64,000 bases of DNA, from IMG/VR virus record IMGVR_UViG_3300027969_000041; one strand, given 5' to 3'. Below are positions 10,546 to 11,639 of this stretch, one piece after another. Source of the DNA: a virus (taxonomy: Duplodnaviria > Caudoviricetes). The notes below the pieces were generated by a model. That model was not told where the DNA came from, ran no database searches, and worked only from the letters and a program-made list of their open reading frames with translations. A program made the translations under genes and the position numbers. Numbering within the stretch: position 1 is the stretch's first letter; every line of letters begins with the position of its first letter.

Positions 10546-11415
10546 ATGCAACAAACCTCATTTCAACCAAGAATTAACCCGCTAGCTAACTACATGCGTC
10601 AACCTAAGATCTACATTACGCTGCCTAGTCGTGGTGAATTTTGGTCTAAAGGAAGTATTGATTTTCCAGACAATGGTGAGTTTCCGGTGTTCTCCATGAC
10701 AGCTCGAGATGAGCTGTTATTCAAAACACCAGACGCATTAATGAATGGTCAAGCTATTGTCGATGTTATTCAAAGTTGTATTCCTGCAATTAAAGATGCA
10801 TGGGCAACACCCACCATTGATTTAGATACCATTCTAATTGCTATTAGACTAGCAACATATGGAGAAAAGATGCCGTTCACTCATAAGGTTCCTAAAACAG
10901 ATGAGGAAGTTGAATATGAAATTGATTTAAGAATGTTGTTAGACCAGCAGCAAAATAATCGCTGGATAGAACAAGTTGTTATTAATCCAGAATTTATTAT
11001 TTTTGTTAAACCGTTGACATACAAACACATGACTCAGACCAATATTAAGAGCTTCGAAACTACTCGTATCCTTAGCATGGTCAACGACGAATCTATTTCC
11101 GATGAGAAAAAACTTGAAATGTTTAACATAAGTTTTACTAACTTAACCAAAGTTACTATTGATTTAATGTCTTCTAGTGTGTACAAAATTGTTACTGCTA
11201 ACGAAGAAGTAACCGATGCACGATATATTTCCGAGTTTGTTAATAATGCAGACAAAGAAATATTTGATGTTGTACAAAAACATCTAAGTGCATTAAAAGA
11301 AAATAACGATCTTAAACCTTTAGAGTTTACAACAACTGAAGAACAGAGAGAAGCAGGGGCTCCCGAAACTTACACTGTTCCGATTAACTTCAACGATTCT
11401 GATTTTTTCGCCTAA
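10546..11415 (+). CDS. gp26: Baseplate hub/tail assembly chaperone, T4 gp26-like
   Basis: NPLANYMRQPKIYITLPSRG, MTARDELLFKTPDALMNG and DLDTILIAIRLATYGE motifs typical of gp26-like proteins. Confidence 0.75.
   Translation: MQQTSFQPRINPLANYMRQPKIYITLPSRGEFWSKGSIDFPDNGEFPVFSMTARDELLFKTPDALMNGQAIVDVIQSCIPAIKDAWATPTIDLDTILIAIRLATYGEKMPFTHKVPKTDEEVEYEIDLRMLLDQQQNNRWIEQVVINPEFIIFVKPLTYKHMTQTNIKSFETTRILSMVNDESISDEKKLEMFNISFTNLTKVTIDLMSSSVYKIVTANEEVTDARYISEFVNNADKEIFDVVQKHLSALKENNDLKPLEFTTTEEQREAGAPETYTVPINFNDSDFFA
11403..11409 (+). other. Candidate -1 programmed ribosomal frameshift site (T TTT TTC)
   Basis: X XXY YYZ heptamer in the correct phase just before the gp26-like stop (GAT TTT TTC GCC TAA). 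The -1 frame (TTT TTT CGC CTA AGG CTT TTG ACT ATG) is open and continuous with ORF 11421-11639. Confidence 0.65.
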
Positions 11416-11420
11416 GGCTT

Positions 11421-11639
11421 TTGACTATGACTATGGAAGAAATCCATAGAGAAGTTAAAAAATTAGAAGATGAGTCAAAAGCCTTAAAGAAAGAACTTTA
11501 CAAACTAGCCTGGTTTATGAGGGGCGCTCTTACATTTGAGCAAGCATACATGCTTGATGTAGCAGATAGAGAAATTATTGGAGAAATTGTTAAGGAAAAT
11601 CTCGAAACCACAAAAGAAAGTCAATTACCTTTCTTTTGA
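11421..11639 (+). CDS. gp51-like small baseplate/tail assembly protein, probably also the C-terminal part of a frameshift fusion
   Basis: Follows the gp26-like gene in the -1 frame; helical KELYKLAWFMRGALTFEQAYMLDVADRE segment. Confidence 0.6.
   Translation: MTMTMEEIHREVKKLEDESKALKKELYKLAWFMRGALTFEQAYMLDVADREIIGEIVKENLETTKESQLPFF

Follow-up and report, generated by a model that had tools for sequence, protein, structure and literature searches.

The gp26-like baseplate-hub assembly gene of an uncultured, T4-related giant phage from freshwater ends in a -1 frameshift signal which, judged by its conservation in related sequences, is far beyond chance, and a longer form of its product is very probably made by ribosomal slippage at this signal. 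The gene lies in the window, i.e., the whole stretch of 64,000 nucleotides that was analysed, which holds head and tail genes of the phage. The two sequencing runs that cover most of the window are freshwater metagenomes; the other listed matches are DNA runs of marine or unlabelled origin, and there is no RNA run among them.

A slippery site at the end of the gp26-like gene

The gp26-like gene is located next to a tape-measure-like gene and beyond it, on the same strand as that neighbour, lie head genes. The features of the locus are the following:

6452-8179, minus strand: genes for the major head protein, the prohead protease and the portal (ORF list, Pfam/PHROG profile matches)
8188-10467, minus strand: gene for a tape-measure-like protein of 759 aa, divergent from the gp26-like gene
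10546-11415, plus strand: gp26-like gene with a 0-frame product of 289 aa, the short form (ORF, PF12322, phrog_150)
11403-11409, plus strand: slippery heptamer T_TTT_TTC in X_XXY_YYZ phase, one codon ahead of the 0-frame stop
11409-11639, plus strand: -1 frame extension of 76 codons and a stop, containing the callable ORF 11421-11639 (open frame, codon periodicity, conserved motifs)
11413-11426, plus strand: 5' arm of a long-range stem (UAAGGCUUUUGACU) with the 0-frame stop inside (RNA fold, covariation)
11431-11449, plus strand: inner hairpin of 7 bp within the long-range loop, weakly conserved (RNA fold)
11473-11486, plus strand: 3' arm of the long-range stem (AGUCAAAAGCCUUA), which codes for E-S-K-A-L in the -1 frame (RNA fold, covariation)

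The 289-aa protein matched the Pfam family PF12322 (T4_baseplate) over residues 60-249 with an E value of 8.9e-11 and 42.3 bits, above the curated cut-off of 24.5 bits, and among the PHROGs it matched phrog_150 (baseplate hub, E 2.4e-14). Its nearest named relatives, with about 30% identity, were found in the giant myoviruses Atu_ph07, Phosso, RaK2, PA5oct, CBB, A4 and XacN1.

Other parts of the window were also inspected. An ORF of 4526 aa (27226-40806, plus strand), presumably encoding a giant baseplate or fibre protein, comes immediately after a baseplate wedge gene of gp6 type (23865-27224, phrog_10646). Four consecutive ORFs of 529, 524, 342 and 415 aa (41748-47219, plus strand), whose N-termini match phrog_14394 and phrog_15511 and whose C-terminal parts are tail-fibre-like, look like a tandem array of fibre paralogues that share one attachment domain. 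A QueE-like radical SAM gene (phrog_2076) is found near thymidylate synthase and dihydrofolate reductase genes (55644-56501 and 47216-48573, both on the minus strand), a context that may hint at DNA modification of the 7-deazaguanine type. Between the gp26-like locus and gp46/gp47-like (SbcCD) genes lies an ORF of 142 aa (12723-13151, minus strand) with ..GFVYLI...GRLYVGKK.. near its N-terminus, which by eye looks like a putative GIY-YIG homing endonuclease.

At its 3' end (11392-11415) the gp26-like gene reads ...AAC GAT TCT GAT TTT TTC GCC TAA, so that the 0-frame product ends in ...NDSDFFA* with the stop codon TAA at 11413-11415. The original prediction had placed a T TTT TTC heptamer in the right phase at this gene end, and it is present there, at 11403-11409. 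The first codon after a -1 slip begins at 11409; the predicted reading R-L-R-L-L-T-M-T-M-E-E was verified, is in frame with the ORF 11421-11639 and meets no stop in the -1 frame 11409-11639 before 11639. Recomputation of the predicted long form gave 288 + 76 = 364 aa with the junction peptide SDFFRLR, as had been proposed; its tryptic junction peptide ends in ...VPINFNDSDFFR (...NFNDSDFFR). The window thus combines an in-phase heptamer with an open -1 frame that leads into a conserved coding region, which is the arrangement of a canonical -1 programmed frameshift.

Conservation of the heptamer, the downstream stem and the -1 extension

Relatives were collected from IMG/VR with the window protein (48 loci, 39-82% identity) and with gp26 of the cyanophage S-WAM1 (80 loci), and further IMG/VR searches with gp26 of Aeh1 and of Cygsa01 as well as annotated isolate records were added. 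One locus (L165) was left out on account of a contig frame break near the gene end. The heptamer T_TTT_TTC was carried by 154 of 157 gp26-like genes and T_TTT_TTT by the other three. It was always in phase and 1-6 codons ahead of the stop, and wherever the contig was long enough the -1 frame after it stayed open over 58-77 codons. Four more isolates agreed, i.e., CBB, 7t3 and A4 with T_TTT_TTC and XacN1 with T_TTT_TTT; here the site lies 4-11 codons ahead of the stop and the extensions comprise 70-79 codons. Conservation of heptamer and frame, which had been named as a check of the original prediction, was therefore found in all 161 relatives examined, each with an in-phase heptamer and an open -1 extension of 58-79 codons. 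The range covers giant phages (RaK2, PA5oct, Atu_ph07, Phosso, CBB, A4, 7t3, XacN1), cyanophages and the group of the Aeromonas phage Aeh1.

The genes with the T_TTT_TTT variant, in which the frame relation is kept, are L146-L148 from IMG/VR and L168 from the Xanthomonas phage XacN1. In XacN1 the 0-frame continues for 10 codons past the slippery site.

At 50% identity the 157 genes fell into 13 clusters. With the residues x-F-F and the codon usage of these genes taken as given, all 13 clusters would use NNT TTT TT[CT] by chance with a probability of about 1e-11, a rough estimate in which the clusters are treated as independent. The third codon positions just 5' of the heptamer were the most variable ones (entropy 1.51); the three synonymous sites within the heptamer never varied.

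The RNA downstream of the heptamer was analysed for structure. The segment 11403-11500 folded with a minimum free energy of -29.8 kcal/mol (z -5.86). The core of this fold is a perfect 14-bp long-range stem between 11413-11426 and 11473-11486 that closes a loop of 46 nt; it begins 3 nt 3' of the heptamer and includes the 0-frame stop. In 25 diverse relatives 82.6% of the cells of this helix were paired and six pairs were changed on both sides, for example to GGCUCUUAUC/GAUAAGAGCC in locus L044. The covariation score of the stem was reached by none of 500 shuffles, and slid controls scored much lower. For the inner 7-bp hairpin, 52% of the cells were paired among relatives. The same topology, a stem 2-6 nt past the heptamer that encloses an inner hairpin, was formed by other sequences in Atu_ph07 (z -6.67), S-WAM1 (z -5.94), Phosso and Aeh1. 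No significant structure was detected downstream of the heptamer in RaK2, the cyanophage clade had no single consensus structure, its stems differing by subclade, and the RNA of the window matched no Rfam family. A structure of the stimulatory kind is thus present downstream of the site in the window, and the stem is not universal among relatives.

A second, smaller element had been considered at this place. The original prediction had assigned the structure after the slip site to a GCC-TAA-GGC mini-hairpin (GCCTAAGGC); it is present in the window, but with a stem of only 3 bp, which is not kept in relatives, it was given up and replaced by the 14-bp long-range stem.

The -1 frame itself has coding character. 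Its codon periodicity starts at the first codon after the slip, the first six codons included, and the motifs R-x-R-L-L ... W[YF]MRG ... ER ... ETTKESGLPFF are conserved along the extension. The first of them, R-x-R-L-L, comprises the first residues after the slip and is conserved with synonymous changes.

Probable ribosomal slippage and other explanations

We propose that two proteins would be made from one start of the gp26-like gene. Most ribosomes would end at the TAA codon and release the 289-aa short form, and some would slip back by one base on T_TTT_TTC and read to 11639, giving the 364-aa long form with the same body and a tail of 76 aa. The 14-bp long-range stem probably promotes the slip. 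The short and long forms would be the counterparts of gp26 and gp51 of T4, in which two paralogous genes are used, the one for gp51 including the tail in frame. Both forms would, by analogy with lambda G/GT and with the genetics of T4, serve as chaperones for the tail hub and the tape-measure protein and would probably not be kept in the virion. We infer slippage itself and its rate; the frameshift reading of the original prediction is supported by the conserved heptamer, the frame relation, extensions that lack start codons and the downstream stem.

An alternative without any frameshift is that the 72-aa ORF is a small gene with a start of its own (TTG 11421, or ATG 11427 or 11433), coupled to the termination of gp26, and that TTTTTTC is conserved only through a Phe-Phe C-terminus. 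We consider this improbable. Such starts are indeed accompanied by SD-like AAGG/GAGG sequences in the window, where AAGG lies 9 nt upstream of 11427, and in many close relatives, and gene callers give 102 stand-alone proteins of 58-75 aa; a free protein of 68-72 aa may be made from the window extension besides the long form. However, at least five lineages have no start in the first 25 codons of the extension (no ATG, GTG or TTG was found there in RaK2, PA5oct, L026, L047 and L049), and in four more (Aeh1, S-RIM8, L044, L048) the earliest one stands at codon 18-19 and has no Shine-Dalgarno sequence. The R-x-R-L-L residues conserved ahead of any start, and a synonymous change of AGG to CGG in locus L025 that destroys the SD-like AAGG, speak against it as well. 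The Pseudomonas phage Cygsa01 (L057, 3300-3482) agrees with a separate small gene: its gp26 ends in AGC ATT TTC ACC TAA without a heptamer, and next to its one PF12322 gene a small gp51-like ORF in the -1 frame begins at an overlapping TAATG. The extension can therefore apparently work as a separate protein, and this lineage looks like one that replaced the slip by translational coupling. That Phe-Phe is a feature of the protein is likewise suggested by T4 gp26, which ends in ..FFELL without a heptamer; against this, T4-type genes without the extension use TTC TTT or other residues, whereas the choice of NNT TTT TTC is fixed in 13 of 13 clusters at the chance level of about 1e-11 given above. 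Moreover, T4 gp51 is colinear over the slip junction. From this comparison of sequences, the extension would be read from the slip site and not from its own start.

Fusion of the frames could also arise during transcription, if RNA polymerase added one U at the T6 run in some of the mRNAs. A homopolymeric T6 or T7 run is indeed present in every relative, but it is never longer than 7, and bacterial RNA polymerase as a rule slips efficiently only where a run has reached about 9. In addition, its phase is always X_XXY_YYZ and it nearly always ends in C, properties that matter to tRNA re-pairing and not to polymerase, and the stem with its covariation, 3 nt past the heptamer, agrees with a stimulator of ribosomal slippage. 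The PRFect paper describes the 'other mechanism' as two separate genes. Transcriptional slippage thus appears slightly less probable still than a separately started gene. An error of assembly in the homopolymer, to which some sequencing chemistries are prone, or a mere coincidence of heptamer and open frame, with a true gene that is fused or simply ends there, is effectively refuted by the comparative data, since the same T6 run and frame relation recur in 161 independent sequences, finished isolate genomes included. As weak evidence in the same direction, a search among longer proteins gave no homologue in which the extension is part of a fused frame. Slippage of the ribosome on the conserved heptamer is retained as the probable explanation of the long form.

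Comparison with T4 gp26/gp51 and lambda G/GT

Gene 26 of T4 lies on the minus strand and gene 25 comes next; genes 26 and 51 are oriented divergently. T4 gp26 ends in ...KEFFELL*, and its Phe-Phe is coded by TTC TTT. Residues 1-201 of T4 gp51 matched PF12322 with an E value of 3.9e-52, and gp26 matched this family too; gp51 is therefore a paralogue of gp26 that is extended by about 48 residues at its C-terminus. The gp51 tail (approximately residues 202-249) was aligned by hhalign with the profile of the cyanophage/Aeh1 extensions with 92.8% probability, an E value of 3.9e-7 and 31% identity over 39 columns. Moreover, the HMM of the gp51 family matched conceptual trans-frame products of S-WAM1, S-RIM8, L109, L115, L138, L146 and L149 as one continuous domain over the slip junction (E 1e-13 to 7e-19), and in the Aeh1 product a second gp51 HMM domain likewise spans the junction. 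At the junction, marked here by a slash, '..dlf/kllvnPdeifnfykin..' of gp51 is aligned with '..SFF/RVALMHDSLMNYYKTN..' of S-WAM1. The extension of the giant-phage clade was only marginally similar to gp51 (E 0.0017) and to the extension of cyanophages (E 0.067), with the register kept, and its homology to the gp51 tail rests mainly on position. The original prediction had joined gp26-like and gp51-like genes. The link to gp51 stood, in that T4 gp51 and gp26 are paralogues within PF12322 and the C-terminal tail of gp51 matches the -1 extension; the notion of a gp51-like gene had to be narrowed, as the 72-aa ORF corresponds to this tail only and genes 26 and 51 of T4 are divergent and lack the heptamer.

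Phages in which the heptamer is present (Atu_ph07, RaK2, PA5oct, S-WAM1, Aeh1) have one PF12322 gene, and those of the T4 type, in which it is absent (T4, KARL-1, KFS-EC, Aeromonas phage 25), have two; Cygsa01 is intermediate between them. By parsimony the slip would be ancestral and the two-gene state of T4 derived. In a wider form, which we hold only tentatively, one gene with a slip and a covarying, stop-containing stem would be ancestral for the whole T4 superfamily, including the giant phages of the RaK2, PA5oct and Atu_ph07 type, genes 26 and 51 of T4 would have arisen late, by a duplication in which the long form became fixed in frame, and the giant-phage clade and the stem may go beyond the coverage of the 2022 paper considered below.

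[quoted passage not shown] The PRFect paper says of this work that in some T4-like phages two genes, a short one and a longer, fused one, take the place of a frameshift, and a 2025 paper (PMC12846349) refers to it with regard to poly-T slippery sequences in 'TAC-N genes of T4-like phages'. The core idea appears to have been published already in 2022, and the view of the original prediction that a frameshift is not standard for T4-type gp26/gp51 is outdated. The feature of the window appears to be one more case, in an uncultured giant phage, of a kind already described.

If the long form is made as proposed, contractile tails of the T4 type would follow the scheme of nearly all long-tailed phages, in which the chaperone comes in a short and a long version. 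This would account for the 'gp51-like' mini-genes of cyanophages and, in giant phages, for the stretches without annotation that follow gp26. A joined slippage CDS is given in none of the 21 phage records compared, the small ORF being annotated as independent; the long form may therefore be missing from many phage annotations. The conserved TTTTTTC together with the stem would be a ready marker for fixing them. The natural series from frameshift to coupled ORF (Cygsa01) to duplicated gene would also be useful for studying evolution, i.e., the gain and loss of recoding sites.

The neighbour of the gp26-like gene was examined with regard to the chaperone role. A tape-measure-like protein of 602-913 aa was encoded upstream of the gp26-like gene in 28 of 28 loci checked. 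For the homologue of the 759-aa protein in RaK2 the annotation gives similarity to a tape measure protein, and the homologue in PA5oct has been detected by MS. In S-WAM1, S-RIM8, Aeh1 and Cygsa01, gp26 is immediately followed by a large gene in the same orientation; the window gene is adjacent to its tape-measure-like neighbour but divergent. Pairwise BLASTP gave nothing significant for the 759-aa protein against T4 gp29 and the 811-aa protein of S-RIM8, nor for the 615-aa protein of Aeh1 against T4 gp29, and neither Pfam nor PHROGs put a tape measure label on any of these three proteins. A profile search of the PDB returned only matches of helical bias, among them the 80alpha tape measure with a weak match (E 0.0017). 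The 759-aa neighbour is thus tape-measure-like by its size, its position and the annotation of its relatives only.

Two further observations concern these large proteins. Most tape-measure-like proteins of the window and the loci L006-L050 keep an N-terminal ATEATL and a C-terminal GNLFA, and their middle is poorly conserved and variable in length. The 811-aa protein of S-RIM8 (L056, 3862-6297), encoded directly downstream of the gp26 extension, matches phrog_790 'endolysin' over its full length; it may be tape-measure-like with a lytic domain, or the phrog_790 label may mislead.

A structural comparison with tail assembly chaperones, proposed along with the original prediction, gave no match to solved chaperones. 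The AF2 model of the 289-aa protein (pLDDT 83.5, pTM 0.79) found nothing below E 0.7 in the PDB with Foldseek, and VIA-align against the PDB found only a generic helical hairpin (158-212, Z below 8). A sequence search of the PDB with the gp26-like protein returned no relative, and Pfam assigned it to PF12322 only and to no known tail assembly chaperone family. In a review of the T4 tail, gp26 and gp51 are hub assembly chaperones, and gp51 is required and absent from the particle. By analogy, a tail-chaperone role of the lambda G/GT kind is rather likely for the two forms.

The closest known system is thus the pair of T4 gp26 (208 aa) and gp51 (249 aa), which belongs to the same PF12322 family and likewise presents a short and a long form on a common body; the extra C-terminal tail of gp51 begins right after the conserved Phe-Phe. 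T4 differs in having two divergent genes and no heptamer, whereas the window phage has one gene with a -1 slip. With 289 aa the window body is the longer one, and it has none of the Cys pairs that occur in T4 gp26 and gp51; its tail is only marginally similar to that of gp51, at the E value of 0.0017 given above. The small cyanophage ORFs annotated as 'baseplate hub assembly catalyst (gp51)' are the same -1 extension, called as a separate gene after gp26 in S-RIM8 and Cygsa01.

The second system is the pair of chaperones in other long-tailed phages. Xu, Hendrix and Duda are said to have described, in Mol Cell in 2004, a conserved -1 frameshift of tail assembly chaperone genes; known cases are lambda gpG/gpGT and E/E+E' of P2. 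As in lambda G/GT, the two products of the gp26-like gene would share an N-terminus, the X_XXY_YYZ site lies at the extreme 3' end of the upstream frame, and the gene stands beside a tape-measure-like gene; in cyanophages and Aeh1 a large gene comes directly after it on the same strand. The need for assembly is another likeness, T4 gp51 being not in the particle. In contrast to lambda, searches by sequence and by fold linked the gp26-like protein to none of the known chaperone families, and the window gene is divergent from, not upstream of, its tape-measure-like neighbour. In size the gp26-like body is roughly double gpG, and its tail comes to about half of the T part. Lambda G/GT is generally held to need no downstream stem, whereas the window has a strong one.
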